Under the pieces are notes generated by a model. That model was not told the DNA's origin. It saw nothing but the letters and a program-made list of their open reading frames with translations, and did not search any database. From a virus, in the UHGV virus genome UHGV-0214148: 64,000 bases of DNA. One strand, written 5' to 3'. Shown here one piece after another: positions 969-61,449 of this stretch (its first letter is position 1; the number at the start of each line of letters is the position of its first letter). A program made the position numbers and the translations under genes.

Positions 969-1484
969 TTACCCCCGGTGCAAGAAAATACGGTTAGTGT
1001 TTTCGAATTTCGGTTCCGTCCACTCTAGTTCCCAGTAAGCCTGGTTAATATCGCGAGACGTAAGTTTCAAATTCGAAACGCCGGGGATATCGATCTGTTG
1101 CAGTAAATTAATAATCGTCATCAGCTCTTTACGAGGACGGTTCCAGATAACTTCAAGATATTCCTTTAGGCGTTCTGGGTAAGCGACAGGACGAATATAA
1201 ACTAACCCAGAAGGATACTCAATTGCTGAGGGCGTTCTTGGCACTAACCAAACCCAGTCTTTTAATAGCGGTCCTGGGTGATAGTTGGAGAGTTGGGTAA
1301 GCGCGTTTGCGACCGAACAGCAACGGAAGTAGGTGATATCCCAATCGCGTTCATGACAATTTCGCGCAACGATAACTTTTAAACGGTCAATAGGTTTACC
1401 GTCGATGGTCGTAACACCAGGTTGATTCGCCAGAATCTGACGTTCACGTTTAGTGTAAAGATTCATGTTAATATTTACTGACAT
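969..1484 (-). CDS. hypothetical protein (171 aa)
   Basis: ORF with AAAGGAG RBS 7 nt upstream of ATG. Confidence 0.8.
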   Translation of the reverse strand: MSVNINMNLYTKRERQILANQPGVTTIDGKPIDRLKVIVARNCHERDWDITYFRCCSVANALTQLSNYHPGPLLKDWVWLVPRTPSAIEYPSGLVYIRPVAYPERLKEYLEVIWNRPRKELMTIINLLQQIDIPGVSNLKLTSRDINQAYWELEWTEPKFENTNRIFLHRG

Positions 1485-1510
1485 TTAATGCTCCTTTAGG
1501 TAAATGGTGT

Positions 1511-1519
1511 GGGGGGGGG
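1511..1519. repeat. homopolymeric G9 tract (intergenic, upstream of RBS of 969..1484)
   Basis: Read directly from sequence. Confidence 0.95.
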
Positions 1520-1533
1520 TAGTTAATGCTTCG

Positions 1534-2376
1534 TTATTTAAGATTCTGAATTTCTCTCATCTCGTTACAAAACTTATCAAACAACTGGGCGTATTTGTCA
1601 ATGTGATTTTCGAACTCCCCAAAAAGGTGGCGTGAAAGGCGTTCGCTGACTTCCTTTTCGTATTTCTCGAGAAGTTGTTTAAAATATTCACTGTCTCTCT
1701 TAATTTTCTTCACATGGGATTCCAAAACTTTAAGAATCCATGATTCGTTTCTGATCAAGAGATTCAAATTACCTTCAAGATATTTGCTTTGATAAATCAT
1801 AAATTCGCGGCCTTCGAGTTCATCTTTCACGCGTCGGATAAACTCGCCAGCATTGGCTTCGCTAATATCTTCAACTGTAAATACCAGAACATTTTCTCCC
1901 TCTATGTCTTCCAATAGTTGATTTAAAAGAACACGATAGCTAGTATATTCATAGTTCACCCTAAGTACGTTGTTTTCAACCAGATAAGTGAATTTGTCGC
2001 TGTAAAAAAGGTATAATATCGATCCAATTTTACCTGCTTGTTTGGGGGTAAGCGGAATCTCGTCTGTGAAGTAAGCGACGTCTTTTGCGGTGGGCTTGTC
2101 TTTTAGCCTACAAGTCATTTGATCGGGTATTTCTTGCCCTTTAGGCATCTCAACAGGCCGTACCAAAATATCCATAACTGCACTAATGAGCTTGTTAGAG
2201 AAATCGACCTCGCCTTCTACCCAGAAAATATTAAATGTTTCCGATTTAACTTTATAGTAAAAGGTGTACGTTTTTTGTAACTCAGCGATTTCCTTAATTT
2301 GTTCTTCTGTGGGGATAGGGGAGATCTTAAACCTGCTGATGACTTTTTCTTCTTCGGTGAGTTCGAACTGTAACAT
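1534..2376 (-). CDS. hypothetical protein (280 aa)
   Basis: Long ORF in operon-like minus-strand arrangement. Confidence 0.8.
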   Translation of the reverse strand: MLQFELTEEEKVISRFKISPIPTEEQIKEIAELQKTYTFYYKVKSETFNIFWVEGEVDFSNKLISAVMDILVRPVEMPKGQEIPDQMTCRLKDKPTAKDVAYFTDEIPLTPKQAGKIGSILYLFYSDKFTYLVENNVLRVNYEYTSYRVLLNQLLEDIEGENVLVFTVEDISEANAGEFIRRVKDELEGREFMIYQSKYLEGNLNLLIRNESWILKVLESHVKKIKRDSEYFKQLLEKYEKEVSERLSRHLFGEFENHIDKYAQLFDKFCNEMREIQNLK

Positions 2377-2387
2377 GTTATAGTTCC

Positions 2388-2831
2388 TTAAATCATACCT
2401 GGGAATTCGAAATCGATTTTATCTAAAAGTTTGTAGTCGTCTTTTAGTTGAAGCATTAGTGTATTCTTAAACAGTTCAAGTGAACCGATAAAGTAAGCCG
2501 TATAGCAGCTACCACGAACAGAAGAGGAAAGACCCAAGTCTCTTAAACACTGTTTCAAGATTTCATGTTCTTCAGCGGTACCGAAAAGTTGGAAATTGAT
2601 AACGGTAATCTGTTTATTAATGATTGCCGATAACCATTCTTTAATTCTTCTCGTGGTTATACGTTCTTTGAAATCACTAGCTTCTGGCAACCAGGTAATG
2701 TGAACGAACGGTGCATCGTAATCCACGAGAACTTTTTGCTGCCAACGTACTTGCATCAAACCACGAATACGGTTTGCTAACGTTTCAGAATCACAAAGTA
2801 ACATAATGCCGTTAGTAGTATTTGGTTTCAT
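2388..2831 (-). CDS. hypothetical protein (147 aa)
   Basis: ORF track; 4-nt overlap with upstream gene. Confidence 0.75.
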   Translation of the reverse strand: MKPNTTNGIMLLCDSETLANRIRGLMQVRWQQKVLVDYDAPFVHITWLPEASDFKERITTRRIKEWLSAIINKQITVINFQLFGTAEEHEILKQCLRDLGLSSSVRGSCYTAYFIGSLELFKNTLMLQLKDDYKLLDKIDFEFPGMI

Positions 2832-3679
2832 AATTGCCCTTCCTTCTTAATGTAATCTTCAACCAACTTATCAAACACGATTTTTATTTTCTCGCGTTCA
2901 TCTTCATTCAATTCACCAGAACAGGTTAGCCCATTTATCTTTCCGTACCGTAATTCCAACACATATTTCAACCGATGACGTAAGGCTTGTTCAAAATGCG
3001 TCGGGATATAGATCGGTTCGAAGTTGTGTAATAAAGTAAAATTGTCTTCGGTGTGTTTAGGGGGTTCGAATTTTACTTTATCTAAGATAGTAAGCCAACG
3101 GTGTCTGTCGACTAACCGATCGTCCCAATAAACCGGTTTTGTCTTAGAGGGAGTAAGTGTGTTGTAGTTACTGGAATCAGAGACACGGAAATTTGCCGTG
3201 ACATAAGTCTTCGAGAGTAACGAGAGAAGACAAATCGTACCTTCTTCAGAGAAACTTAAACCCTCGTCGAGTACGTCTTTAGCTTTCTTGAAGTAGTCCT
3301 CAATATAGTCTTCAGCAATTGGTTGAATTTCTACCTCCATACAGCTAATTTGGGGCCCGTCTATCCGTAAAGGAATTTTTAGTTCAGCAATATATTGCCT
3401 ATCCGATGTATAAGCTCGCGTAATAATAGGGTACGTAACAGGCTTAGCTAAATGACGATATTCGCCATCGCTAATGACTGAGAGACGTCCAAAGCCATCT
3501 TTATTCGATTTTGAAAAACTGTAAAGGTCTTTTAGATACTCCAGATACTGGTCATCCGTCATTTCATCGGTATCAAATTCACGAATGTAAAGTTGATTAA
3601 AAGATCCCTTTGTTTGTTCGTAGTAATAACCAGGGTCCCTATTTGCTAGAATGTGCGGGAGATAATACGGGTGATACAT
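2828..3679 (-). CDS. hypothetical protein (283 aa)
   Basis: ORF with AAAGGAGG RBS; preceded by conserved promoter-like motif and a terminator. Confidence 0.85.
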   Translation of the reverse strand: MYHPYYLPHILANRDPGYYYEQTKGSFNQLYIREFDTDEMTDDQYLEYLKDLYSFSKSNKDGFGRLSVISDGEYRHLAKPVTYPIITRAYTSDRQYIAELKIPLRIDGPQISCMEVEIQPIAEDYIEDYFKKAKDVLDEGLSFSEEGTICLLSLLSKTYVTANFRVSDSSNYNTLTPSKTKPVYWDDRLVDRHRWLTILDKVKFEPPKHTEDNFTLLHNFEPIYIPTHFEQALRHRLKYVLELRYGKINGLTCSGELNEDEREKIKIVFDKLVEDYIKKEGQL

Positions 3680-3723
3680 CTAATCCTCCTTTAGGCTATA
3701 ACTAATGGAGTGAACGTAAATTT

Positions 3724-3760
3724 CACTCTCTCCTAGGTAATATATATCTGAGAAAAAATA
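3724..3760 (-). promoter_or_regulatory. conserved promoter-like motif copy 1
   Basis: Minus-strand consensus TATTTTTTCTCAGATATATATTACCTAGGTGAGAG about 45 nt upstream of the ATG, directly after a terminator. Confidence 0.5.
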
Positions 3761-3796
3761 TAAAAACCGTAGGATGGACTAAGTCCATCCTACGGT
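3750..3796 (-). terminator. intrinsic terminator after tailspike gene
   Basis: Hairpin CCGTAGGATGGACT-AA-GTCCATCCTACGG followed by T-run on minus strand. Confidence 0.7.
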
Positions 3797-3801
3797 TTAA
3801 A

Positions 3802-5922
3802 TTAAATAACTACCCAGCTTTTGCCATCGGAACCAATCTGCATTAGCGTAATACTTTCATTGGTCTCAATGGGTTTGGCAAGACCTTCCGTCCCACTCTT
3901 TGGAGTGATGAGAACGTTTGAGTTTTCCGGTTTAACGATGATCTTACCAGCCTTATTTGCCACGATCTGTATATTTCTACCCACACTATATTCTAGATCA
4001 GGAATAGTAAGTTGGCCGCCACGGTTGGTGGCTGGGAAATACACATAAGACGACACATCTTCCTCAGATAACACTATACCACCAGAATCACGATTGACCG
4101 AGATCTCAAACTTAGAAATATCGATATCGTAGGCAGTAACTTTCGTAATATCTGTCAGAACCAATTCGTTCAAATCGGTATTAGCTGGACTGTTCGCCAG
4201 ATCAAACGGAGTGCCATTCTTGCCGTCAAGCACAGGTGTGACTTTGATTTTATTGTCACCCGGATAAATGATTTCAAGCGTATGCCAGTTATTATCGTAT
4301 GCACCAAAAGTTCCTAATTGCGCATTCTGCTTTTTATGATGCATCAGATAAAGATTCGTAGCGTCGGTCTGTAAGAAAAAAGACATTAGGTACGGGTTCG
4401 TCTTAGCCACACCAGCGTCAGCAAGTGTAGTACCAGAAGGTAGGTCGGACGCGGAAATACGCCAATAAAGTCCTAATCCGAAACGATCTGCTGCTAAATC
4501 ACCTTTTAGTCTAAAAGTAACGGTCAGACGTCCACCGTAACGTATCATGTCCGCAGCAGTCGCCATTGACTTAGTTACATTCCAAGGTTTCATCGTTACA
4601 GCCTTTCTTAATTCGACGAAATGCCCGTTTCCATCCTCAGTTTTTTGCACGGTTACGTTACAATCAACGATATTGTTCCAACCTTGCCCTTTCAGGGAAC
4701 CATCTCCACGACGACCGTTATAACCAACAGACTCTACTAATGGGGTATAGCTTCTTACCACATTCATATTGTCTTTGGAGCTCTTAGTGTCGTTCTTCGT
4801 CAGGAACATTGCACCAATCGCTGTTCTTGATAATATCTCGGCAGCTATTCTCTCTGAGATAATACCGCGTCGTGCCCAAGAACTGAAATGACTATTCCTT
4901 TCTGCAGACGTCCAGTTATCAGAACTACGGGAGGCAGCACCGTAATAGGCAGCACCAGTGATATTAGGATCGTCAGTGGGATCATTAGTCGGAACATGTT
5001 GGCCATTATCGTCGTACATGAATGGAACAAAAAAGATATTTTTTTGTTCGTTGTTACGATAATTACCGTATATGGTTTCATATTGAGCAGGATATTTTTC
5101 CTTCCAATAATAGGTAGTGTCCCCACAGATCCATGGTACTTCGGCGGTGGCGTACTCGGGCATCTGAGAGAGATGGTCAGAGAGATCAGTTCGGAAACGC
5201 TCTACCATTGCGTTAAATAACGCTGGTTGTTGTGCGTATTGTACTTTAGTCAGATCATACTCTCCCTGCATCCACACTACAGCCAAGAGTTTATTTTTAG
5301 GATTAACTTCCAGGGCTTTTTTGGTCCGGCTAACTAAATCTTTATAAAGCGGTTTGTCCACCCCCCATACCGATGACGCCGCAGAGGCTCCTGTGGCTTC
5401 ATCGAAGGTACCTTCTGCACCACCCGTGAAAGCAGAACCGCCGCGTGCGCAGGGTACTAGTAAGATACCGGCGTTCTTAGGAATATACGGGAGAAGACGC
5501 TTCGCGATATGAAGACCTTGACCCACACATCCGTATTCACCTTTGTCTAAATTGGCATTGGGATGCGAGTATTTGGACATATCTTGCACGTCGTGCAGAC
5601 AGTGATCCGCTGGAATGACGTCGTTATATTTACAATCAGCCCCATTAGGCGTTACCTTCGCACGGCGCGCCATCTGTTTAATTCGCGGATCGGGAGCGTC
5701 CAACGTCGCCGGTAGAGGCAACCCTTCACCATAACTCATCGCATTAGATTGCCCGGCTATAGGAATCACGAAGTAATACTCCGGCTCCGTCGTGCCCTGA
5801 AGTTTTGCAATATCAATTTTATATTCTTTTTCTTCCTTAGAAAGAAGAACTAACGCACCTTTGAGATCGCCAGAGAAATTGTCGAGTTCATGGATACGTT
5901 TCTTTCCAATTGGCTGACTCAT
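3802..5922 (-). CDS. tailspike / tail fibre protein with carbohydrate esterase (SGNH/SASA-like, GQSN motif) domain
   Basis: N-terminal about 35 aa is similar to the N-terminus of the 1479-aa fibre (shared anchor domain). Motif IPIAGQSNAMSYGEG resembles the catalytic GQSNM block of sialate-O-acetylesterase-type SGNH hydrolases found in esterase tailspikes. Confidence 0.6.
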   Translation of the reverse strand: MSQPIGKKRIHELDNFSGDLKGALVLLSKEEKEYKIDIAKLQGTTEPEYYFVIPIAGQSNAMSYGEGLPLPATLDAPDPRIKQMARRAKVTPNGADCKYNDVIPADHCLHDVQDMSKYSHPNANLDKGEYGCVGQGLHIAKRLLPYIPKNAGILLVPCARGGSAFTGGAEGTFDEATGASAASSVWGVDKPLYKDLVSRTKKALEVNPKNKLLAVVWMQGEYDLTKVQYAQQPALFNAMVERFRTDLSDHLSQMPEYATAEVPWICGDTTYYWKEKYPAQYETIYGNYRNNEQKNIFFVPFMYDDNGQHVPTNDPTDDPNITGAAYYGAASRSSDNWTSAERNSHFSSWARRGIISERIAAEILSRTAIGAMFLTKNDTKSSKDNMNVVRSYTPLVESVGYNGRRGDGSLKGQGWNNIVDCNVTVQKTEDGNGHFVELRKAVTMKPWNVTKSMATAADMIRYGGRLTVTFRLKGDLAADRFGLGLYWRISASDLPSGTTLADAGVAKTNPYLMSFFLQTDATNLYLMHHKKQNAQLGTFGAYDNNWHTLEIIYPGDNKIKVTPVLDGKNGTPFDLANSPANTDLNELVLTDITKVTAYDIDISKFEISVNRDSGGIVLSEEDVSSYVYFPATNRGGQLTIPDLEYSVGRNIQIVANKAGKIIVKPENSNVLITPKSGTEGLAKPIETNESITLMQIGSDGKSWVVI

Positions 5923-5925
5923 CTA

Positions 5926-6438
5926 CTACTCTCCAAAAGTTAAGATTTTATTGTCAAACGTCAACACGACAGAATCATCACCGATGCCACACGGTGTTTC
6001 ATCTGGGCCGAAAACCACCACGGAGAACTGTCCTTTATAAGCGATGGAATTTGGAGCGATGCTAAGCGTTACCGCGTCTTTACCTACCGTGAACGACTGG
6101 TCGGTTAAATCGTCGGTTTGTAAGTTAGCACCACAAACGGCATTGACGGATTCGATAAGATCGTGTGCATTAAACCCTTCACCTATTACTTTTACCAGAA
6201 TAGGTTGTTGGTTTAACCACCGCTCTGCGGTTAAACGGTTGTAGTAGATTTGCAACGTTCTGTTTCCAGGACGTTTAATCTTTACAATGGCAGTGGAGTC
6301 ACGATCCATTTCATCACTGGTTTTTACGTCACTGACTTCAACCTCGTTCTCTTGCAAGTCAAGTTGGAGGTCATGGTTAACCAGTGAAATAACCATGTTA
6401 AGTGAAGTTAGTGATAAATCTGGTGTGAATTTTTCCAC
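5926..6438 (-). CDS. tail-fibre-associated protein, paralog of 12527..13087 (GTG start)
   Basis: GTG start with AGGAGG RBS; clear similarity to 12527..13087 (PDLSL...LVNHD..., YY.RL.A...L...PIL, N..D....VN..CG.NLQ..DL); sits immediately upstream of a fibre gene. Confidence 0.7.
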   Translation of the reverse strand: MEKFTPDLSLTSLNMVISLVNHDLQLDLQENEVEVSDVKTSDEMDRDSTAIVKIKRPGNRTLQIYYNRLTAERWLNQQPILVKVIGEGFNAHDLIESVNAVCGANLQTDDLTDQSFTVGKDAVTLSIAPNSIAYKGQFSVVVFGPDETPCGIGDDSVVLTFDNKILTFGE

Positions 6439-6492
6439 GTATGTTTACCTCCTAAGGTTGGGGGTCATAAAATATTGACTAAAAAACATTCA

Positions 6493-6501
6493 CCCCCCCC
6501 C
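6493..6501. repeat. homopolymeric C9 tract (G9 on coding strand), intergenic between adhesin paralog and fibre-associated gene
   Basis: Read directly from sequence. Confidence 0.95.
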
Positions 6502-6535
6502 ACGATTATTTTCAACCGCTTTCAGTTGAAAATAA

Positions 6536-6979
6536 TTAGCTAATTCTCAAATCACGCAGTGCGCCTGTCGATTTCATCGCGTTTTGGAACGCGCCACTGA
6601 TGTTATTAGTCCAGTAATAATGCTGTCCGTTAATAACCTGCTGATAGGTCAGTGCGCAGGTGTTACCACCTAAATTTACGGTAATGTTAGAGGCTCTGCC
6701 TCCTTGTAAGTAAACCGCTAAAGTAGGCTTTGCGTTGGCAACTATCGTCGTTAACTGTAACTCAATACCTACTAAAGTTCCCACCCCGCAGTTACCCGCG
6801 TTTTGAATGGTTCCCTGATTTTTCTGGTTTAACGGCCAGCTTGGTCCTACCGCGCCCCATTTCTTACCTAAAGAATCGCTATATGCAGCGGTTGCAATTT
6901 TACAGCCCATAGATCTTCCCACCATTTGACTCATCATAAAAGGTCTACCCAATCCTAATTTACTACCAGCAGCGCTCAT
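6536..6979 (-). CDS. gp38-like tail-fibre adhesin paralog; annotated from internal ATG, true start probably ATG at 7044 disrupted by G10 tract
   Basis: Paralog of 7298..7843. Upstream ATG (7044..7042) with AGGAG RBS is followed by G10 then TAA; one extra G restores a 22-aa extension MGGGVTGSWVGSSAKNETGEQW that matches the N-terminus of the paralog. Confidence 0.6.
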   Translation of the reverse strand: MSAAGSKLGLGRPFMMSQMVGRSMGCKIATAAYSDSLGKKWGAVGPSWPLNQKNQGTIQNAGNCGVGTLVGIELQLTTIVANAKPTLAVYLQGGRASNITVNLGGNTCALTYQQVINGQHYYWTNNISGAFQNAMKSTGALRDLRIS

Positions 6980-7032
6980 CCATTGTTCGCCCGTTTCGTT
7001 CTTAGCCGAAGAACCGACCCACGAACCGGTTA

Positions 7033-7042
7033 CCCCCCCCCC
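7033..7042. repeat. homopolymeric C10 tract (G10 on coding strand) immediately after an ATG with AGGAG RBS; frameshifts the adhesin paralog N-terminus
   Basis: Read directly; minus strand AGGAGatcgcgATG-G9-TAA. Confidence 0.95.
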
Positions 7043-7056
7043 ATCGCGATCTCCTG

Positions 7057-7287
7057 TTAAGATTTTCTACATGTTATTGAATCGAAAGCACCACGCCCAA
7101 CCCAACGCCAATTATAATGATGATCAGCTTTATAAAGTGTGTATCTGCCCTGCTTTTTTACGTCGAAAATATTGATCGTAGTCTCTTCATTACCCAGCTT
7201 AGCTGTGCCGTAACATACAGGTTCGGGTAGTTGTTGACATCCACTTACTGTAAGCAATGCGAAACCCAGTAAAACTTTTCTTAACAT
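7057..7287 (-). CDS. small lipoprotein (76 aa; signal peptide with lipobox LTVSGC)
   Basis: N-terminal MLRKVLLGFALLTVSGC is a typical signal peptidase II substrate; located between the two adhesin paralogs. Confidence 0.65.
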   Translation of the reverse strand: MLRKVLLGFALLTVSGCQQLPEPVCYGTAKLGNEETTINIFDVKKQGRYTLYKADHHYNWRWVGRGAFDSITCRKS

Positions 7288-7297
7288 CTTTCTGTCC

Positions 7298-7843
7298 TTA
7301 GACTACACTTATTGAAATTGTTGCACCGTTCTGATTAAATAACCAGTTGGTTGCCGTCTTAGCCTCATAGCGCCGGACGCCGTTACTGTAAGAGTACGGT
7401 AGAAAAGTAATCTTCGTTCCGTTAAACGAAAGCGTAATATTCTGATTTGGTCCATTAGTTAGGGCCATGTAGATAATACCAGTATTTTGTACTTGGCTAA
7501 GATGTGTGACGCTACAACCCAAGATCGAACCTGACACCGAACCGGCCGCATTTTGTGTTTGCACACGATTCGATACTGTAGAACCAGCACCCGTTGTTGT
7601 AGAGTTGTTCGAATACCCCCCATACGTATTTGTAATAGGAACCCACTGCGTGTTCGTAGCCTGCACCAAAACAACATAGGTTGATCGGCCTACAACGAGT
7701 TTAAGATCCTCTACGCTACGCCCGACCATCTGCGACATGTTAAATGGTGTGCTCAGTTTAAGCTTATTACCTGCCACACTCATCCACTCCTGACCGGTTA
7801 CTGCCTTTGCTGAGCTTCCAACCCAGCCGGATGCTACCCCCAT
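7298..7843 (-). CDS. gp38-like tail-fibre tip adhesin (181 aa)
   Basis: N-terminus MGVASGWVGSSAKAVTGQEWMSVAG...MSQMVGRS resembles, from memory, the conserved fibre-attachment N-terminus of T2-type gp38 adhesins; directly downstream of the long fibre gene, as in T-even 37-38 order. Confidence 0.55.
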   Translation of the reverse strand: MGVASGWVGSSAKAVTGQEWMSVAGNKLKLSTPFNMSQMVGRSVEDLKLVVGRSTYVVLVQATNTQWVPITNTYGGYSNNSTTTGAGSTVSNRVQTQNAAGSVSGSILGCSVTHLSQVQNTGIIYMALTNGPNQNITLSFNGTKITFLPYSYSNGVRRYEAKTATNWLFNQNGATISISVV

Positions 7844-7884: not shown

Positions 7885-10800
7885 TTAATTCCCCTTGAGT
7901 TCTTTAAGCTCTTGGCGAAGAGTTTTCATGCCTTCTACTAACAACGCAATAACACCATTGTAATTTAGACGTAAACGTTTTTCGCCTGAAATGGCATCAT
8001 CATCCTCAGACACAAGCTCAGGTAACGCTTCTAGAGCGTCCTGAGCAATTAGACCTACAGAAGTCTGCCAGCCGTCGTCAGGATGCTGAATTTCGTACAA
8101 ATAACCGGTTAGTAACTCTAACCGATCCAAAGCCTTATCCAGCTTCACCAGATTACGTTTGTTACGACGGTCAGAACGAATCTGTACGTCGTTAAACGAA
8201 CCGTTACCGTTGCCAGTAACGTTATGTCCAAAGTTTACTTGGCCGTTAGAATTATTAAAAGACAACGGGCGTAATCCGTTCCAGGAACCCGCTGCGGCTT
8301 GTCCGGCGTCGGTTACTAAGAAATAGGTATTGGCACCGTCGTTACGTAAAATAAAACCGTAGGTACCGTAAGCGATTCGAAAATCAGGGTATTTAGTGGC
8401 CAATTTACCATTAACGGTTAAATCACCGCCTACAGTACCGCCCCCTGACGGTAACGCGCCCACTTCCGCAGCAGTTGGCTTGTTTCTCGTATTGTAAGCA
8501 CGACGCCAGCCTGGTGAGTATCCATCGCCGTTAAATACGTAGATAAACTCCGCATTAGTGAGTGCTCCGCCGACGCTCGTCGTTGTGGCGGTCGTTATAC
8601 GGATCGTGTAGTTGTTTGTGCTGTTGCCGTTACTAATGACTTCTATAACGGCCCCAGCTAACGGAATGACACCACAACCCGTCTCGCTGTGAGGTATGGA
8701 CGCACTGGCGGCATAAGCCCACGCACAGCGAGCAACCCACGATCTTGTGGTAAATGCGCCGTTATTTTTCAATAACGTCACTAGCTGTGCTGTAGTTATT
8801 GCACCGCCATTAGCGCCAGTTTCTAACCAACCACTAGGTGATGCCGGACAACCTATTTCGGCTGGCCCTAACGATATATTTCTAGTGCCATCAAACGCAA
8901 TACCATTGATGGTTCTTGCGGTTTGCAACTTTGTTGCCGTGGCTGCGTTTCCGGTGGTCGACTGATTCCCTGTTTGGTTTACTCCAGGTAAGTTGATGTC
9001 TTTAGTACCATCAAAAGCTACGCCACCTATATTTCGCGCAGTCTGGAGCTTAGTCGCAGTCGCAGCATTCCCCGTCGTCGATTGGTTACCGGTTTGGTTC
9101 ACACCGGGCAGACTAATGTCTTGCGAACCATCAAAGTTAATACCACCGATCTTACGTGGCGTTTGTAACTTAGTAGCGGTCGCTGCATTACCTGTCGTAT
9201 TCTGGTTACCTTGCTGGTTAACCCCCGGTAAATTGATATCCCCAGTACCGTCAAAGGTAACGCCCCCGATTCTGCGAGCAGTTTTCAGTTTCGTCGCGGT
9301 AGCAGCGTTACCAGTAGTATCTTGATTACCGGTGGTATTTACACCAGGAATACTATCACGGGCAGTATAAACTTGTGCCCAATCTGACCACGGCGCATCC
9401 GCTGTATCGCGTCGACTACGAATATAAACGGGTGCGTGCGCACCACTCGTGCCCGACCAACCGATTAACAGTTCACCTTCACCTAGCGCAGTAGAACCGC
9501 CCAAATGCAGCAAGTTACCATAAGCGGTCGGATAACCGTTATTGTAAACTTCGTACATCTGAATACCGGGTGTACCTTTGTTTGAACCGGTTAGTGCAGT
9601 AACCCGACCACGACCTACCAGGGTGTTGATATTGATGTCAGCAGAACCATCGAATCTCACACCGTTAATATTTCTGGCAGTTTGAAGTTTAGTGGCTGTC
9701 CCGGCATTACCCGTGGTGTTTTGATTACCCTGTTGGTTAACACCTGGGAGGTTAATATCAGCACTACCGTCGAAAGCGACTCCACCAATTCTACGTGCCG
9801 TCTTTAATTTCGTTGCGGTTGAAGCATTGCCTGTTAACTCGCCTGCTAACCCTTTTGCAAAGGTCTGTTTTTCTGCCCAGGTGTGTGCTGCATTCAATAC
9901 AGGCATCTGTCGTGGTGTAATCGTACGACTACCTTTCTCACCAGCGATACGTACTGCAAAGAATCGATAGTTGGCAGTAGACACCGTACTACGCCAAACC
10001 AACATACTCCGGCCTGATGTAGCGCCATCTGATGGACCAACCAGAATGCTAACTAAGTTACCGTCAATAACACCCCAATCCATTCCCGTAGGAATGTTTT
10101 TCATGGTGTTAAGCGGCGTACAGATTAACTCACCCGGTTTAAAGTCATAGGTTTGCCAGTCTAAAGGATCAACATTCGCACGTTCACCGCCGATACCTAA
10201 TACCAGCGGAAGCGAATACGATGTGAAAACCTCACGCCAATCGCTCCAAGCGTTACCCGTACGGATACGTTGGAATTTACGACCTTTAGTTTCTGTACCC
10301 GTACCGTATGTAGTATAATTCTGTTCGACCCCTGTACCGTCTAAGCGTAAGGTAACTTCACAAACGCCTAATATGGTTTCACCAGAAGAACCGGTAAGTG
10401 GACCGTTAGTTGCTTCACCAGTGACACTGAAACGTCCCGGTTTAACGAGATCGTTAAAATTGGCTTTAAAGAAAGCACCGTCAGTCTGATAACCAACCTG
10501 AATCCAATCTTCCCATTGCGGGTTTGATGAATCCCACGTTGCGGTCAAACCACGAACATACATCGTACCACGACGTGTGGTGTATCGCTGCAACCGTCCG
10601 AAAAGACCACCTTCCATTACTTCTAGTACGCCTTGCGCACCGCCACCTTCTTCAGGGTAATGTCTGCTAAAAACAGCCAGCGAACTGCTTGAGTTTCGCC
10701 AGTTACCCATATGCTCAGCGCCACCCAAACTGTTCAAGTCTATAGCGGTAGATAATGGACGTACACCAGTAGTTACCATTCTCCACGGCGACCAGGGTCC

Positions 10801-12324
10801 ATTGGCACCATTCCACTCGCCACTCAGCATACGGTTGTACACGTTACCATTACGACAGGTAAAACGCTGTGCACCACTGTAATTACCGGCTTTATACACT
10901 TCCAGATAACCGACTGCACCGTCTTCTGGGAAATGTTTTGCCATCGACGCATTGGTTGACGTCGACTTAGCCCACGTTCCTGTGTAATTGGCATCAGGAG
11001 CAAATGTGTTAATATCAGCATCTACAGGCATTTCGCCACGGAAACGTAGATAGGTGTCAGGAGACAGACCGATATTGCGAGCAAACGTTTCTTTATCTGG
11101 GATATCAGCGCCGTTAGAGTTTTTCTGTAACGCGCCATTCGCTTTATCTACAGTGGCTTTTAATCCCAAGAAATTGATGATATCCGCAGTTGACCCTTTC
11201 GCTAACAAGGATCTGGCCGTTTCTGTAAAATCCGTTAATCCGACTTTATTACTGCCAGTGAAATACATGAGTTTATTTGCCGCTGTGGTGACTGCGGCAA
11301 TGGCGGTGAGCAACGGACTGAGAGGTTGTTTCTGCGCAAGTTCCCCAGTAATCGTTGTTGCGAAGTTAGGGTCATTACCTAACGCCTCAGCTAATTCCGC
11401 TAAGGTATTTAACGTCTCGGGTGAAGAACCAACCAGTTCCGCAATCGCGTCACGCACCCAGGCCGTTGTGGAGATGCTCGTGTCGTTCGAGTCCTTCGGG
11501 GGTGTTGGGGATGACGGTTTACCCGTAAAATTCGGCGAATGTTTATTGGCTTTTAACTGTAATTCGTCATTCAGCTGTTTAACCGTGGACGGTGTGGCGG
11601 CCTCAGTCACGGATTCGCTAGTCAGTGTATCGTTAAGTTTAACGATACCTTTACCGGTCGTACTAGCGTCGATTAAGCCCTGCGCAGCGATTTTCTCCGC
11701 ACGTAAGGCAGCTGACTCCGAGCGTGTTGCTGCGCCTTCTGAACTTTCTTTATCTTTCGCGACCTGTGCAGCAATCTTCTCCACTGCGCCCTTACTGGCC
11801 TCAACTGAAGCCGCAGTATTCTCGACACCGGTAGCCGTCTGTTGGACTTGTCCGGCCTGTTGCGTAACCGTTTCTGCTTTCTTAGTTACATCAGCCGCTG
11901 CAGCCGTCACCGATTGTTCGCTTGTAGCGACAGCTTGAGCTTTCTCATTTACCGACTGTAATACAGTATCTACGGCAGTTTTCGCGGCTAAAACTTCAGC
12001 GTGTTTTTTGTTAACCTCAGCAGTTTTAGTGGCAACGGTTCCCGCTTGCTCGCTAACGGTGGAAGCTAACGTGTCAGTTTGTTGCTTCGCGGTTTCTGCT
12101 AAGTCTTTTGCTTGTGTGGCTTCTGTTGCAGACTGTTGTGATTTGGCCGCAGCCGTTTGTGCGTCAGCAACCGCGTTTCTGACGGTGTCAATATCCGCAA
12201 CAATCTCGCGGACAGGTAACTGATAATCCCTTTCGTCTTTCGAAAAAAGTAAAACGCCTTCACCGATATCCCCGGTGTATGGACGTAAATCGTGTAAACG
12301 AATTTTCTTTACCGCTTTAGCCAT
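7885..12324 (-). CDS. long tail fibre protein (1479 aa) with tandem fibre repeats and C-terminal intramolecular chaperone (peptidase S74-like) domain
   Basis: About 6 tandem repeats of the type TATKLQTAR-IGGV-FDG--DI-LPGVNQ-GNQ-TTGNAA; C-terminal ...SDRRNKRNLVKLDKALDRLELLTGYLYE... resembles the auto-cleaving chaperone domain of T5 pb1 and endosialidases; N-terminal coiled-coil and anchor region. Confidence 0.8.
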   Translation of the reverse strand: MAKAVKKIRLHDLRPYTGDIGEGVLLFSKDERDYQLPVREIVADIDTVRNAVADAQTAAAKSQQSATEATQAKDLAETAKQQTDTLASTVSEQAGTVATKTAEVNKKHAEVLAAKTAVDTVLQSVNEKAQAVATSEQSVTAAAADVTKKAETVTQQAGQVQQTATGVENTAASVEASKGAVEKIAAQVAKDKESSEGAATRSESAALRAEKIAAQGLIDASTTGKGIVKLNDTLTSESVTEAATPSTVKQLNDELQLKANKHSPNFTGKPSSPTPPKDSNDTSISTTAWVRDAIAELVGSSPETLNTLAELAEALGNDPNFATTITGELAQKQPLSPLLTAIAAVTTAANKLMYFTGSNKVGLTDFTETARSLLAKGSTADIINFLGLKATVDKANGALQKNSNGADIPDKETFARNIGLSPDTYLRFRGEMPVDADINTFAPDANYTGTWAKSTSTNASMAKHFPEDGAVGYLEVYKAGNYSGAQRFTCRNGNVYNRMLSGEWNGANGPWSPWRMVTTGVRPLSTAIDLNSLGGAEHMGNWRNSSSSLAVFSRHYPEEGGGAQGVLEVMEGGLFGRLQRYTTRRGTMYVRGLTATWDSSNPQWEDWIQVGYQTDGAFFKANFNDLVKPGRFSVTGEATNGPLTGSSGETILGVCEVTLRLDGTGVEQNYTTYGTGTETKGRKFQRIRTGNAWSDWREVFTSYSLPLVLGIGGERANVDPLDWQTYDFKPGELICTPLNTMKNIPTGMDWGVIDGNLVSILVGPSDGATSGRSMLVWRSTVSTANYRFFAVRIAGEKGSRTITPRQMPVLNAAHTWAEKQTFAKGLAGELTGNASTATKLKTARRIGGVAFDGSADINLPGVNQQGNQNTTGNAGTATKLQTARNINGVRFDGSADININTLVGRGRVTALTGSNKGTPGIQMYEVYNNGYPTAYGNLLHLGGSTALGEGELLIGWSGTSGAHAPVYIRSRRDTADAPWSDWAQVYTARDSIPGVNTTGNQDTTGNAATATKLKTARRIGGVTFDGTGDINLPGVNQQGNQNTTGNAATATKLQTPRKIGGINFDGSQDISLPGVNQTGNQSTTGNAATATKLQTARNIGGVAFDGTKDINLPGVNQTGNQSTTGNAATATKLQTARTINGIAFDGTRNISLGPAEIGCPASPSGWLETGANGGAITTAQLVTLLKNNGAFTTRSWVARCAWAYAASASIPHSETGCGVIPLAGAVIEVISNGNSTNNYTIRITTATTTSVGGALTNAEFIYVFNGDGYSPGWRRAYNTRNKPTAAEVGALPSGGGTVGGDLTVNGKLATKYPDFRIAYGTYGFILRNDGANTYFLVTDAGQAAAGSWNGLRPLSFNNSNGQVNFGHNVTGNGNGSFNDVQIRSDRRNKRNLVKLDKALDRLELLTGYLYEIQHPDDGWQTSVGLIAQDALEALPELVSEDDDAISGEKRLRLNYNGVIALLVEGMKTLRQELKELKGN
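8780..9850 (-). repeat. in-frame tandem coding repeats (~35 aa units) within the long tail fibre gene
   Basis: Repeated peptide motif visible in translation; also generates spurious antisense ORFs 8747..8965 and 8993..9325. Confidence 0.7.
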
Positions 12325-27769: not shown

Positions 27770-27817
27770 GAAGTGAAAAAAAAAGAAAGCAGGAGAGAAC
27801 CCTGAAAAGGTTCTCTC
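27770..27817 (-). terminator. intrinsic terminator
   Basis: GGAGAGAACC-CTGAAAA-GGTTCTCTCC + T-run. Confidence 0.7.
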
Positions 27818-38154: not shown

Positions 38155-38220
38155 GCAAAAAAAAAATAATTCGAGCTTACTCCGACCCTTCTGGGGTCGG
38201 AGTGGCTTTTCTTTTTTTTT
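38155..38220. terminator. bidirectional intrinsic terminator between convergent genes
   Basis: A10-hairpin(CTCCGACCC...GGGTCGGAG)-T-rich run. Confidence 0.75.
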
Positions 38221-38520
38221 TCACCACGCTATCTCGTCTTTCTTAATAGCAAGGTCCAGCATCACTCCTATTGCTAAGGGATCGTTATCGTACGCCGTCA
38301 GTTTCGCTAACAGTTCCGACTGACCTGATTTCTTGACGGCTTTCAGTAACTCATTACGTGCATTATAGTAGATAAGCCAGTATCTACCGTGATTGATTTT
38401 GGTGTTTGAATGCTCTAATAAGTAGCGATTAAACTCCATGGTTGCTTTGGTTTCAGGTAACTCAAAACGAAAACGTGGGCTACGTTCGTAGTCTACATTA
38501 ATAACGACATATTTAATCAT
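38221..38520 (-). CDS. hypothetical protein (99 aa)
   Basis: ORF with GAGG RBS. Confidence 0.7.
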   Translation of the reverse strand: MIKYVVINVDYERSPRFRFELPETKATMEFNRYLLEHSNTKINHGRYWLIYYNARNELLKAVKKSGQSELLAKLTAYDNDPLAIGVMLDLAIKKDEIAW

Positions 38521-43465: not shown

Positions 43466-43500
43466 GTCTCCCTTTAATAATATCTATCCAAAAAATAATA
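43466..43500 (-). promoter_or_regulatory. promoter-like motif copy 7 (degenerate, ends ...TATTAAAGGGAGAC)
   Basis: GGATAGATATTATTAAAGGGAGACG following the capsid-gene terminator. Confidence 0.4.
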
Positions 43501-58673: not shown

Positions 58674-58700
58674 ATCTCACTAAGGTAATATCTATCTGAG
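58674..58700 (-). promoter_or_regulatory. conserved promoter-like motif copy 4 (degenerate)
   Basis: CTCAGATAGATATTACCTTAGTGAGAT upstream of 57983..58624. Confidence 0.45.
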
Positions 58701-58714
58701 ATTATTTTTAATGC

Positions 58715-58760
58715 GAAAAAAAAAAGAAAGGGGAGAACCACCCCATTACAGGGTGGTTCT
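58715..58760 (-). terminator. intrinsic terminator after paralog A virion gene
   Basis: AGAACCACCC-CATTACA-GGGTGGTTCT + T10. Confidence 0.65.
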
Positions 58761-58779
58761 CTTACTAAACAATCAGGGA

Positions 58780-60069
58780 TTATTTAGATTTTTCGTAAGC
58801 AGCGATACCTGCGGAGATATAGCCGTTCAGACCGCCAGCCAGATGTTTCTGAGTAGAGGCAATAACTTTCTCGCCCAGAGACACTGCCTGGTTAATGCTG
58901 TTGATGTAACGACGTGCGGTACGTACAGATTCGGTCAGTTCCGGTTTTTCGTCGATCTTCACGCTGTCGATTTCTTTCAGCAGCTTCTCAATCTGCTGAC
59001 TGAATTTCTCGCGAGCCTGTTCGGTCTTACGATATTCCAGAACGTTCTTCTCAATCTGTTTACCCACTTCGTTGAAGAAGGCATTGGTCTTAGCCAGTTC
59101 GCTAACAGACGGAGTTTTAACGTTGGTTTCAGCACGGTTTTCAGCTTCCACGTAGCTGGAGCTAAAGCCGCCTTCTTCGTCATATTCCATCTTCAGCGCC
59201 ATGTTACCAAGTTTGAACTTGTTAACGTCTTCTTTGGCCAGAGCAGCGAAGTCTGCTTTCAGTTTATCAACTTTAGCGCCATCGCCTTTAACAACGTTAC
59301 CAACCAAATCCGTACCGTTGTTCAGGAAGCTCTGAACGTTACCACTGTAGTAGGTGGAAACGTGGTTCAGGATATTCTTCAGGCGCACCAGATCGTCACC
59401 AACGAATTTACCGTCGACGGACAGAGACTTGATGAAGCCACCAGAGATTTCATCTTTCTTCTGTTTGCCCAGCTTACGAATAGCTTCGTCGTATTTCTTA
59501 GAACGGGCCTGGATGGATTTACCCTGGTTGGAGAATTTCAGCCAACGATCTTTGATCTTACGGCCTTGTTCTTTCAGCCATTCCCAAATACGTTTCAGGA
59601 AGGCTTTAATGTCTTCCCACAGGGATTCACGAGCAACCTGACGACGGTTACGAGAACCGTAGGATTCGTGAGCAACAGAAGAACGGTGTTCGAAGTTCCA
59701 ACGAGAACGGATAGATTCCTGAGCAACGTCCAGCGCAGTCGCAGCGTCGTCCGGCATATCTTCTTCGGCGTCCATCGGTTCTTCACCGTCTTCGCCAGCA
59801 CCTTCACCGTCAGCAGCAGCCTGAGCTTCATCCAGAACTTCCAGCTGAGCATCAGTTTCGTCACCGTCTTCTGCCAGCAGTTCAGCGTCAGCGTCCAGGG
59901 CTTCGATCGGTTTGGTATCATGCTCGATATCGGCCAGAGTACCTTCAACAGATTCTGCTGGCAGTTCGATGCCGTCTGGAACTACAGTGGCAGTAGCTTC
60001 CATCGATTCACGAGCGGCGCGAGTTTTTGCGAAATTTGCCATTTTAAGCTTTTCCTCTAAGGGGAACAC
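58780..60069 (-). CDS. highly expressed virion-associated protein, paralog A (429 aa)
   Basis: Host-optimal codon usage; first 16 aa (MANFAKTRAARESMEA) identical to paralog B and C-terminus conserved (GLNGY..AGI.AY.KSK). Confidence 0.85.
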   Translation of the reverse strand: MFPLEEKLKMANFAKTRAARESMEATATVVPDGIELPAESVEGTLADIEHDTKPIEALDADAELLAEDGDETDAQLEVLDEAQAAADGEGAGEDGEEPMDAEEDMPDDAATALDVAQESIRSRWNFEHRSSVAHESYGSRNRRQVARESLWEDIKAFLKRIWEWLKEQGRKIKDRWLKFSNQGKSIQARSKKYDEAIRKLGKQKKDEISGGFIKSLSVDGKFVGDDLVRLKNILNHVSTYYSGNVQSFLNNGTDLVGNVVKGDGAKVDKLKADFAALAKEDVNKFKLGNMALKMEYDEEGGFSSSYVEAENRAETNVKTPSVSELAKTNAFFNEVGKQIEKNVLEYRKTEQAREKFSQQIEKLLKEIDSVKIDEKPELTESVRTARRYINSINQAVSLGEKVIASTQKHLAGGLNGYISAGIAAYEKSK

Positions 60070-60118: not shown

Positions 60119-61390
60119 TTATTTAGACTTTTTGTACGCGCCGATACCAGCACCCAGGTAACCGTTCAGACCGCTAATGACGGTGTTAGCTACGTAGCTA
60201 ACGGCACGGTTCAGGGTCTGGTAGTTCTTCACAGACTGATCAGCAGCTTGACGTGCATTACGCAGTCCTTCCCACTTACTCTCGTCTTTTTCGTTGTTCA
60301 GCGCGTTGGACGCTTTTTCAGCAGCCTGTTGCAGTTTCACGATTTCAGAATCGTAAGCACGGAAATCTTTCAGTACGGCTTCGAAGCCTTTACCGATTGC
60401 TTCCAGAGCAGATGCTGCGCCAGCCATTTCAGAAACAGACGGAGTAGCCACTTCTTTATCGTCAGAAGCGTCACCGGTGCTCATGAAAGCAATTGCGGTG
60501 AACTTGTGGCCGCCAGCCAGTTCTTTAGTACCAGCCTGAACGTAAGCGTTGCCCGGCAGTGCCAGCAGTTTAGACGCATCACCATTTTCAAAGTTCGGCA
60601 GAGAATGCAGTTTAGACGCTGCTTTACCAAACAGTTCTACCGGCTGATCGCCACGCATTGCTTTGAATGCGTCATCGTCACCTTTGGTAACAGCGGTCAC
60701 AGCTTCACCGGCTTGTTTTTCCAGTGCACCGATAGCACCTTTCGCTTTACCTGCGGTAACTTCTTTAGCGATGGCAATAGAGCCAGCAGCATCGAATTTA
60801 CCTTCGATGGACAGTTTGGTGATAAAGCCACCAGAAATGTTGTCTTTATCTTGTTTGCCCAGCTTGCGGATCATTTCCTGATATTTCTTCGCACGTTTCT
60901 GCGCGGTCTTACCGACGTTGAAATATTTCAGTTTCAGGTCTTTGATCTTCGCGATCACTTCTTTACAGAACTGAATGAAGCGCTCGTAAAGACCCTTCAG
61001 GGTTTCTTTCCAACCTTCCTGGGCAGCAGCAGTCATGCCACGACCACGGCGATAGGATTCGCGAGCCAGTTTAGTGCGCTCCAGGTTCCAACGACGTGCG
61101 ATGGATTCCTGTGCCACTTCGTGCAGGGCAACCGCTTCTTCCGGCATTTCTTCACCGTTAGCAACGGCTTCTTCCGCCTGTTCGATAGCGTCTTCAGTAC
61201 GCTCGGTATCGGCAGCCAGGGTTTCACCGTCGGTTTCCAGCTGATCGAGCTGACCGTCGATAGATGCTACGTCCGCAAGTTGGACGTCCAGGTTCTCTTC
61301 TGCCGGTTCAACGTTGCTGATACCGTCGATTACTTCATCGGCCGCTTCCATCGATTCACGAGCGGCGCGAGTTTTTGCGAAATTTGCCAT
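60119..61390 (-). CDS. highly expressed virion-associated protein, paralog B (423 aa)
   Basis: As paralog A. Confidence 0.85.
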   Translation of the reverse strand: MANFAKTRAARESMEAADEVIDGISNVEPAEENLDVQLADVASIDGQLDQLETDGETLAADTERTEDAIEQAEEAVANGEEMPEEAVALHEVAQESIARRWNLERTKLARESYRRGRGMTAAAQEGWKETLKGLYERFIQFCKEVIAKIKDLKLKYFNVGKTAQKRAKKYQEMIRKLGKQDKDNISGGFITKLSIEGKFDAAGSIAIAKEVTAGKAKGAIGALEKQAGEAVTAVTKGDDDAFKAMRGDQPVELFGKAASKLHSLPNFENGDASKLLALPGNAYVQAGTKELAGGHKFTAIAFMSTGDASDDKEVATPSVSEMAGAASALEAIGKGFEAVLKDFRAYDSEIVKLQQAAEKASNALNNEKDESKWEGLRNARQAADQSVKNYQTLNRAVSYVANTVISGLNGYLGAGIGAYKKSK

Positions 61391-61449
61391 TTCGTTTATT
61401 TCCTTTGGTTATATAACCCAATTACACGCCCCTAGAATGAGGGGCCCCC

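Follow-up and report, generated by a model that had tools for sequence, protein, structure and literature searches.

The window analysed here, 64,000 nucleotides (nt; positions 1-64000) of the virus genome UHGV-0214148, contains three long G/C homopolymers that an earlier note had read as a contingency locus governing the expression of adsorption genes. We found all three at the positions reported, namely G9 at 1511-1519 (tract 1), C9 at 6493-6501 (tract 2) and C10 at 7033-7042 (tract 3), where G9 stands for nine consecutive G residues, and so on. All genes of the tail-fibre module around the tracts are encoded on the minus strand; on the coding strand tract 1 is a C-run and tracts 2 and 3 are G-runs, and they are described as such below. 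The window is part of the genome of a phiKZ-like jumbo phage lineage of Enterobacteriaceae of ~225 kb (about 222-227 kb). It encodes a PhiKZ_MCP capsid protein, and its structural genes share 73-75% nucleotide identity with those of Erwinia phage Asesino and SPN3US-like Salmonella phages. Our main subject is adhesin 2, a gp38-like tail-fibre adhesin whose start codon is overlapped by tract 3, and its surroundings, in the direction of transcription, are as follows:

7885..12324, minus strand: long tail fibre, 1479 amino acids (aa), with Phage_fiber_2, Gp34_trimer and Peptidase_S74 chaperone domains; presumed carrier of the adhesins
7298..7843, minus strand: adhesin 1, gp38-like, 181 aa, in frame, with a Gp38_N domain and a G6 run (coding strand) at 7616-7621
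7057..7287, minus strand: Cor-like superinfection-exclusion protein, 76 aa (PHROG 1119, E = 1.3e-25)
7051..7055, minus strand: Shine-Dalgarno (SD) sequence AGGAG of adhesin 2, 6 nt 5' of the ATG and 2 nt past the Cor stop codon
7033..7042, minus strand: tract 3, G10 on the coding strand, overlapping the adhesin-2 ATG (7042-7044)
6536..7044, minus strand: adhesin 2, gp38-like tail-fibre adhesin, out of frame in the window (Gp38_N; PHROG 1121, E = 2e-44)

Tract 3 and the reading frame of adhesin 2

At tract 3 the coding strand reads AGGAG-ATCGCG-ATGGGGGGGGGG-TAACCGG, with the run opening on the last letter of the ATG. A run length n of 3k+2 (5, 8 or 11; hereafter ON) puts this ATG in frame with the 165-residue body of the adhesin, while runs of 7, 9 or 10 lead to a stop after 3-13 codons (OFF). 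The G10 of the window is read as ATG-GGG-GGG-GGG-TAA, giving the peptide MGGG*, and is OFF; G9 gives a 13-residue peptide. Indeed, when we substituted tract lengths from 7 to 13 in silico, only 8 and 11 yielded a protein of 168 or 169 aa, and all others gave products of 3-14 aa. The third tract had been described as lying in coding sequence, which holds insofar as it overlaps the start codon of adhesin 2, but the gene is frameshifted in the window and its mechanically called open reading frame (ORF; 6536-6979) begins only at 6979.

Repairing the run to G11 restores a 169-aa protein with a full Gp38_N domain. The Pfam scores, against a cut-off of 25 bits, are 72.7 bits for adhesin 1, 68 bits for adhesin 2 after repair (covering positions 2-40 of 40) and 26 bits for its truncated form, and the residues regained at ON lengths, VTGSWVGSSAKNETGEQW, align with the N-terminus of adhesin 1. 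The sole in-frame restart in adhesin 2 is M23, which has no SD sequence and whose product would lose half of the fibre-attachment domain. Adhesins 1 and 2 are 67% identical over their N-terminal 43 residues, with nothing detectable beyond. By analogy with gp38 of T-even phages, this pattern fits a shared fibre attachment site combined with different receptor-binding parts. Neither adhesin of the window matched the GP38 receptor-binding domain (PF05268), a domain that the 257-263-aa adhesins of sister lineages do carry. Homologues of adhesin 2 in Stx phages, in the phage-plasmid CMS-2020a and in sister jumbo phages begin with ATGGGGGTA, i.e. with G5, and we therefore take G5 to be the ancestral run.

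Human gut metagenomes often contain near-identical contigs of ~225 kb (index entries number 158 blocks for the Cor-like protein and 218 for one of its neighbours), and relatives are also present in isolate assemblies of Shigella (Shigella flexneri), Salmonella and E. coli; a megablast search of the region against a phage collection returned a 135-bp match only, and no close isolated phage. We gathered relatives (L003-L053, together with NZ_CP173450.1, a circular 'plasmid' of 221,873 bp in the urinary isolate E. coli 98232) through exact-protein look-ups, and all tract lengths given here were read from the consensus sequences of short-read metagenome or isolate assemblies. The flanking sequences of tracts 2 and 3, scanned for as exact patterns in IMG/VR and in JGI metagenome contigs, gave no match. 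The circular copy in the urinary E. coli hints at a carrier state of the phage lineage.

Among 17 distinct genomes of the Cor-carrying lineage, tract 3 was G9 in eight, G10 in six, and G7, G8 and G11 in one each, and this variation does not track phylogeny. L003 (G8, ON) and L012 (G11, ON) show zero other differences over ~11 kb, and L036 (G9, OFF) is one single-nucleotide polymorphism (SNP) away from both. Clades with 0-2 SNPs per 11 kb hence differ at the tracts (G8, G9, G11), as far as consensus assemblies report them, and between near-identical genomes indels fall almost exclusively at these tracts. In a protein collection, the ON product of 168 aa was found on 14 contigs and that of 169 aa on 7, while the OFF state, recognisable by the 124-aa product of the gene-caller, was found on 61; ~26% of contigs are thus ON and ~74% OFF. 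No G5 or G14 version of the Cor-lineage adhesin 2 was found in the same collection.

A single clonal lineage contains both ON and OFF alleles, and the latter retain the ORF. The 165-codon body is intact in all 17 tract-bearing copies, with no nonsense mutation or extra frameshift, and the ratio of non-synonymous to synonymous polymorphism (pN/pS) among adhesin-2 haplotypes lies between 0 and 0.14, a value derived from few differences per pair (0-3 non-synonymous, 1-7 synonymous). Tract 3 itself remains uninterrupted over lineages that are ~5-6% divergent.

The state of adhesin 2 is related to the company it keeps. The fibre modules of L013-L018 and L045-L053 contain one, two or three stacked adhesins behind an otherwise conserved backbone, the exception being L046, which has no long fibre and no adhesins; the second fibre varies across relatives between the esterase protein, a 644-731-aa alternative and a 206-aa protein. 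In L013 and L051, with adhesin 2 as the sole adhesin and placed straight after the fibre, the run is G5 and the gene is ON. Where a 257-263-aa adhesin with a GP38 domain lies ahead of it, adhesin 2 is usually G5 and ON as well (L014-L018, L052, L053 and E. coli 98232), which means that it is redundant yet ON in most genomes of that lineage. OFF alleles arise in more than one way: L045, from a Salmonella Enteritidis assembly, is OFF through a G9 on a different flank (GTAGCGTCAGG), L048 and L049 are OFF through a contraction to G4, and L047 has lost adhesin 2 entirely. In every OFF allele that we saw, whether expanded (G7-G11) or contracted (G4), another adhesin precedes adhesin 2 and makes it redundant. 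The switch occurs where the adhesin is redundant, and the expanded start-codon tract arose on at least two sequence backgrounds.

The Cor-like protein always adjoins the 181-aa adhesin 1, and the two are inherited as a cassette. Exclusion proteins of the Cor type are of a kind found in temperate lambdoid phages, and here one is located within the fibre module of a jumbo phage; together, adhesin 1 and Cor resemble a cassette of a receptor-binding protein plus a receptor blocker.

Tracts 1 and 2 between the genes

The other two tracts are intergenic and close to the start codons downstream of them, as had been noted before. The features concerned, again in the direction of transcription, are:

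6506..6535, minus strand: 11-bp AT-rich hairpin (TTATTTTCAAC/GTTGAAAATAA) directly adjoining the stop codon of adhesin 2
6460..6501, minus strand: tract-2 hairpin predicted by RNAfold, pairing G9 (6493-6501) with C5 (6460-6464), directly 5' of the SD sequence of the DUF7941 gene
5926..6438, minus strand: DUF7941 protein (domain match), 170 aa, GTG start at 6438, leading the second fibre set
3802..5922, minus strand: SASA-esterase/DUF6645 fibre protein (domain match), 706 aa, with a coding-strand G6 at 5361-5366
between the esterase fibre and the 171-aa gene, minus strand: three proteins of unknown function, of 283, 147 and 280 aa
1534..2376, minus strand: the 280-aa gene 5' of tract 1, deleted, truncated or replaced in some relatives
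1511..1519, minus strand: tract 1, nine C residues on the coding strand, 15 nt 3' of the stop codon that ends the 280-aa gene and 27 nt 5' of the ATG at 1484
969..1484, minus strand: 171-aa gene 3' of tract 1 (PHROG 8180, function unknown)

Tract 2, a G9 on the coding strand, follows the adhesin-2 stop codon and the 11-bp AT-rich hairpin, and the GTG of the DUF7941 gene lies 55 nt downstream. In the RNAfold model the G-run pairs with the C5 at 6460-6464 over an AT-rich inner stem; G-runs of at least 9 are also predicted to pair with a CCUU beside the SD sequence, and the energy differences are small. When the window is compared with E. coli 98232, conservation starts exactly at the G-run, and the sequence 5' of the run is unrelated. 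The G-run and a run of four or five C residues persist in relatives as the loop between them diverges, as in L045, where the loop has diverged and the G-run and ACCCCC are kept. In the first 24 copies of tract 2 that we collected, a G-run of at least 9 was present in all 24 (length 9-13; that of L011 is interrupted by an A, GAG10). Further relatives have shorter arms, with G6 in L048 and L052, an interrupted run in L049 and, in L053, a G5 arm within a perfect 12-bp stem (GGGGGATAAAAT/ATTTTATCCCCC), so that the arm ranges from 5 to 13 across relatives.

Hairpins of the same design are found at two more places in the module. One lies between two DUF7941 paralogues (tract B), with G9-11/C5 in E. 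coli 98232, L050, L052 and L053 and G6/C9 in L047, and the other lies 5' of the long fibre, with G10/C7 in L052. Folding of the alignment recovers the G:C stem; the tract-2 homologues show only changes from G:C to G:U and no compensatory change, and the lone change on both sides of the stem in the alignment comes from the non-homologous tract-B sequence. The simplest reading is that the G:C hairpins are structural and that their homopolymeric arms may lengthen freely without loss of pairing. The length of tract 2 probably has little effect, or an only quantitative one.

Tract 1 is C8-C11 in relatives or is replaced by a short C-rich substitute, GGCTTAATCACACCACC or GGCTTAATTACCCCAC. Of 22 genomes checked from Cor and non-Cor lineages, 9 lack the tract; their downstream SD sequence, ATG and gene are unchanged. 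RNAfold predicted no structure at tract 1. It is hypermutable and clearly dispensable, and we do not take it for an on/off switch.

The proposal that tracts 1 and 2 act by altering promoter or leader spacing was not borne out. A search for sigma-70-like sites between 900 and 7900 gave 14, compared with 14.8 in shuffled sequences, and is thus without excess; k-mers enriched upstream of genes in NZ_CP173450.1 were ATAGATATTA and T-runs, neither of which is found at the tracts. PhiKZ-like phages transcribe with RNA polymerases of their own. Nor do the downstream genes appear to depend on a long run, as they are intact where tract 1 is absent and where tract 2 is only G5-G6. Given that promoter-like sites are not in excess, that tract 1 can be dispensed with and that some relatives have a short tract-2 arm, control through a promoter spacer is unsupported for both tracts; for tract 2 we regard it as unlikely.

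We also considered two readings in which the tracts would mark rearrangements. The G9 at 1511 and the C9 at 6493 are mutually inverted, as would suit an invertible segment, but their flanks share only the run itself and no relative is inverted, and we rejected this reading. That the tracts serve as recombination junctions is left as an unproven side idea. The adhesin-2 cassette boundary coincides with tract 3 and the edge of the conserved leader with tract 2, while deletions in the neighbourhood of tract 1 have their ends in AAAT microhomologies, 8-20 nt from the tract and not within it.

Some observations were made at other sites during this work. The k-mer ATAGATATTA is ~15-fold enriched upstream of genes in NZ_CP173450.1, has exactly two copies in the window (43478-43487 and 58686-58695) and may be a phage promoter element. 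An A10 at 38157 and a T10 at 38212 (together 38157-38221) flank a GC hairpin between convergent genes and look like a bidirectional terminator; the A run varies from 6 to 10 and the T run from 8 to 10, and in L019 and L028 the inner stem and loop are flipped (CCCCAGAAGGG vs CCCTTCTGGGG). Two pairs of long ORFs overlap almost wholly on opposite strands, namely 449 aa (plus) and 429 aa (minus) at 58711-60069, and 423 aa (minus) and 395 aa (plus) at 60119-61435.

Rarity of the tracts and competing readings

The three tracts are the only G/C runs of at least 7 in the window. A first-order Markov model of the window predicts 0.085 G/C runs of at least 9 (Poisson P ~1e-4 for three), and the chance of three random points falling within 5.5 kb is P ~0.02, in line with the earlier statement that such clustering is improbable by chance. 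Five of the six G/C runs of at least 6 fall in the first 7.7 kb (binomial P = 1.4e-4), including the coding-strand G6 runs in adhesin 1 (7616-7621) and in the esterase fibre (5361-5366); the remaining 56 kb has one other G/C 6-run. The further statement that no comparable run exists elsewhere is correct for G/C but fails for A/T, with seven runs of 9-10 elsewhere in the window (at 27776, 38157, 38212, 43506, 48018, 56203 and 58716), all of them intergenic and mostly T-tails on the coding strand. The same enrichment appeared when homopolymers were counted, as the earlier note had suggested, over the complete genome of the relative NZ_CP173450.1, which has 51 C5, 36 G5 and four G/C 6-runs, none of 7-8, and two long runs, a C10 that is the homologue of tract 2 and a C9 between the DUF7941 paralogues, both in the fibre module. 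Long G/C runs in these genomes are extremely rare and restricted to the fibre module. Outside the module, an expansion from G5 to G10 was seen within a hairpin in L024.

In summary, we favour, with a probability of roughly 0.72, a reading in which tract 3 is a translational phase switch, tract 2 a buffered hairpin arm and tract 1 a lineage-specific spacer expansion. All three tracts are hypermutable, and gating of a gene is shown for tract 3 alone. The contingency locus envisaged by the earlier note accordingly shrinks to this tract, which sets the frame of adhesin 2 and varies from 7 to 11 among genomes with 0-2 SNPs, and does not extend to tracts 1 and 2. The sequences themselves show how the length of tract 3 sets the frame, that this run is hypermutable and that ON and OFF alleles exist side by side in one clone. 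As for the mechanism, replication slippage would alter n in AGGAG-N6-ATG(G)n-TAACC; adhesin 2 would be made at n = 3k+2, and an early stop would be met at n = 7, 9 or 10, with adhesin 1, encoded just upstream, presumably produced already. Because the two adhesins share an attachment domain and differ in their receptor-binding part, the population would always mix particles with and without the second specificity, a form of bet-hedging over host receptors. We infer from sequence that the adhesins may compete for the fibre tip and that switching may affect host range. Tract 2 would be the 5' arm of a conserved, G:C-clamped hairpin before the DUF7941/esterase-fibre operon, free to grow from G5-6 to G9-13 because any five G's can pair with the C5, and tract 1 would be a lineage-specific lengthening of a C-rich spacer.

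Several observations weigh against this reading. The OFF share of ~74% is near the two-thirds expected of random lengths, the same would be expected of a gene nearing loss, and pN/pS is built on few substitutions per pair. Adhesin 2 could thus be a redundant gene under loss, with the G-run as a slippage scar and the ON alleles as chance lengths; in other lineages the same gene is indeed inactivated by G4 (L048, L049) or gone (L047), and other fibre genes are also inactivated in near-identical genomes (L036, L037, L038). We nevertheless find this doubtful, since all 17 copies keep the 165-codon body at a pN/pS of at most 0.14, ON and OFF alternate inside a clade with 0-1 SNPs, the tract arose at the same start codon on two different flanks, and it is uninterrupted across ~5-6% divergence. 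Short-read consensus can, moreover, miscall long homopolymers. All comparisons use such data, runs of at least 9 are error-prone and A/T runs differ between assemblies too, as they would if the length differences were sequencing or assembly artefacts and each tract were truly fixed in length. This explanation is highly improbable in view of differences that reach 3-4 nt (G8 vs G11; G9 vs G13) and so go beyond plus or minus 1, of the recurrence of the tracts over independent studies, assemblers and isolate genomes, and of the near-confinement of indels in near-identical genomes to these tracts; even with fixed lengths, the G10 of the window leaves adhesin 2 out of frame. Since long A/T runs likewise vary among relatives, length variation alone is not evidence of selection, and the sequences retrieved for the A10/T10 pair differ from one another by 161 SNPs or more, too many for a like-for-like comparison of A/T with G/C instability inside a clone. 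Long homopolymers are slippage sites for RNA polymerases, and OFF alleles might be rescued at the RNA level, by polymerase slippage on G10 or by ribosomal frameshifting, so that a little adhesin 2 is always made. A 10-nt tract at the extreme 5' end of the ORF would allow this, and it is compatible with switching at the DNA level. We think it very unlikely, as the ATG frame of G10 meets a TAA right after the tract with no slippery heptamer or stimulator, and DNA-level variation already explains the data.

For the intergenic tracts, the points against our reading are that the tract-2 stem shows no covariation among homologues and that the presence of a G-run of at least 9 in 24/24 first copies could indicate function instead of neutrality. 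The latter would suit transcriptional phase variation, in which tract length, acting on a promoter, terminator or leader, would tune the level of the esterase-fibre operon (tract 2) and of the 171-aa gene (tract 1); in its favour are also the distances of 27-55 nt to the start codons, the position of tract 2 at the 5' edge of a conserved leader, the predicted pairing of long G-runs with the CCUU beside the SD sequence, the A-interrupted run of L011 being counted among the 24, and precedents in bacteria (PMC7864442). On balance such tuning is unlikely: the promoter signal is not above chance, the same operon has G5 or G6 in some relatives, tract 1 is missing in many relatives with an unchanged downstream gene, and at tract 2 the predicted energy differences are small and covariation is lacking. 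A broader version, which we hold to be improbable, makes the whole fibre module a multi-tract contingency island with combinatorial receptor-binding configurations arising from one clone. The hairpins at tract 2, at tract B and upstream of the long fibre would then act as length-tunable attenuators and the G6 runs in adhesin 1 and the esterase fibre as lower-rate switches, a state possibly favoured by replication that escapes host mismatch repair.

Inactivating changes in the fibre module are not limited to adhesin 2. Between genomes 0-2 SNPs apart (L036, L037 and L038 compared with L003 and L008), they comprise a change from G6 to G7 in the esterase fibre (~5361-5366; L036, gene split), a 1-nt deletion that splits the long fibre (~9700) and, in the 280-aa gene, a GAA to TAA change (~2350) and a 167-bp deletion (1534-1700). 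Selection on the whole fibre module in the gut seems to fluctuate or to be relaxed. The long fibre gene also has a 120-nt (40-aa) in-frame indel at ~9140-9260, giving proteins of 1479 or 1439 aa (L003, L012, L036).

Significance and likeness to known systems

An abundant, uncultured jumbo phage of gut Enterobacteriaceae appears to use a polyG switch on a spare tip adhesin. In the literature we found no report of such tracts for SPN3US- or phiKZ-like phages or for coliphage adhesins, and to our knowledge experimental documentation of receptor-binding proteins whose phase variation is driven by polyG has so far come from Campylobacter phages alone. If our reading is correct, host range in this lineage would be a property of the population and not of a fixed genotype, with a bearing on metagenomic phage-host links and on the choice of therapeutic phages. 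Gene callers would systematically miss or truncate such genes, as they do here, where the 169-aa adhesin is called as 124 or 147 aa. With a pair of adhesins, a linked exclusion protein of the Cor type and a single fibre, the module would also make a tractable test case.

Known tropism switches of phages include the invertible G segment of Mu and C segment of P1 and the diversity-generating retroelement of Bordetella phage BPP-1 (PMC10579305). In common with these, one phage genome would give rise to particles with alternative receptor specificity, but the known systems work by inversion or by reverse-transcriptase mutagenesis, whereas no invertase, inverted repeats or retroelement are present here. 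Intergenic G/C runs of 7-12 that vary in vivo are known from tpr and tp0126 of Treponema pallidum and from porA and opc of Neisseria (PMC7864442). Like tracts 1 and 2, those G/C runs are intergenic, and they lie 5' of surface-protein genes; they are located in or beside a mapped sigma-70 promoter and their length changes transcription, unlike the situation here, with no detectable promoter, tract 2 as a hairpin arm and tract 1 dispensable.

In phages T2 and T4, contingency loci undergo reversible homopolymer frameshifts at rates raised ~1000-fold, which have been read as bet-hedging (Gomez, Barrick and Waters, 10.1101/2025.10.21.683753). Tract 3 agrees with this general idea, though it is not homologous to the T2/T4 loci. 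The tracts in T2 and T4, found in agt, rIIA and other genes, consist of 6-9 A residues, and repeats of at least 6 are under-represented (0.77x) in coliphage tail-fibre genes (10.1101/2025.10.21.683753); unlike in the coliphages of that study, long G/C runs concentrate in the fibre module of the present lineage. With gp38 of T-even phages (Pfam Gp38_N PF21721 and GP38 PF05268; PHROG 1121), the adhesins share the attachment domain and the position after the long-fibre gene, but those of the window lack the glycine-rich GP38 domain, and are most closely related to the small adhesins encoded by Stx podophages and SSU5-like phage-plasmids. A further difference is that a single fibre gene can be followed by a stack of two or three adhesin genes.

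The closest parallel is with the Fletchervirus phages of Campylobacter, which, as summarised in two later papers, carry G tracts of 7-11 in receptor-binding genes (10.1101/2025.10.21.683753; PMC10579305, citing Sorensen et al., Cell Rep 2021, 35:109214). The two systems share a run of 7-11 G in a receptor-binding gene, frameshifting by slippage and several receptor-binding proteins per phage, and in Fletchervirus itself expression is phase-variable and sub-populations differ in receptor use. Fletchervirus, however, is a myovirus of the Eucampyvirinae that infects Campylobacter, a host rich in polyG switches, while the phage studied here is a phiKZ-like jumbo phage of Enterobacteriaceae; we found no homology to Fletchervirus phages or their receptor-binding proteins, the capsid protein being PhiKZ_MCP and the adhesins gp38-like. 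Unlike in Fletchervirus, the tract here overlaps the start codon of a small tip adhesin of the gp38 type, which itself follows another adhesin; the tract is limited to lineages with an extra adhesin cassette, and the evidence is metagenomic. The resemblance between the two is one of mechanism only, with a slippage-prone G-run setting the frame of a receptor-binding gene in both.

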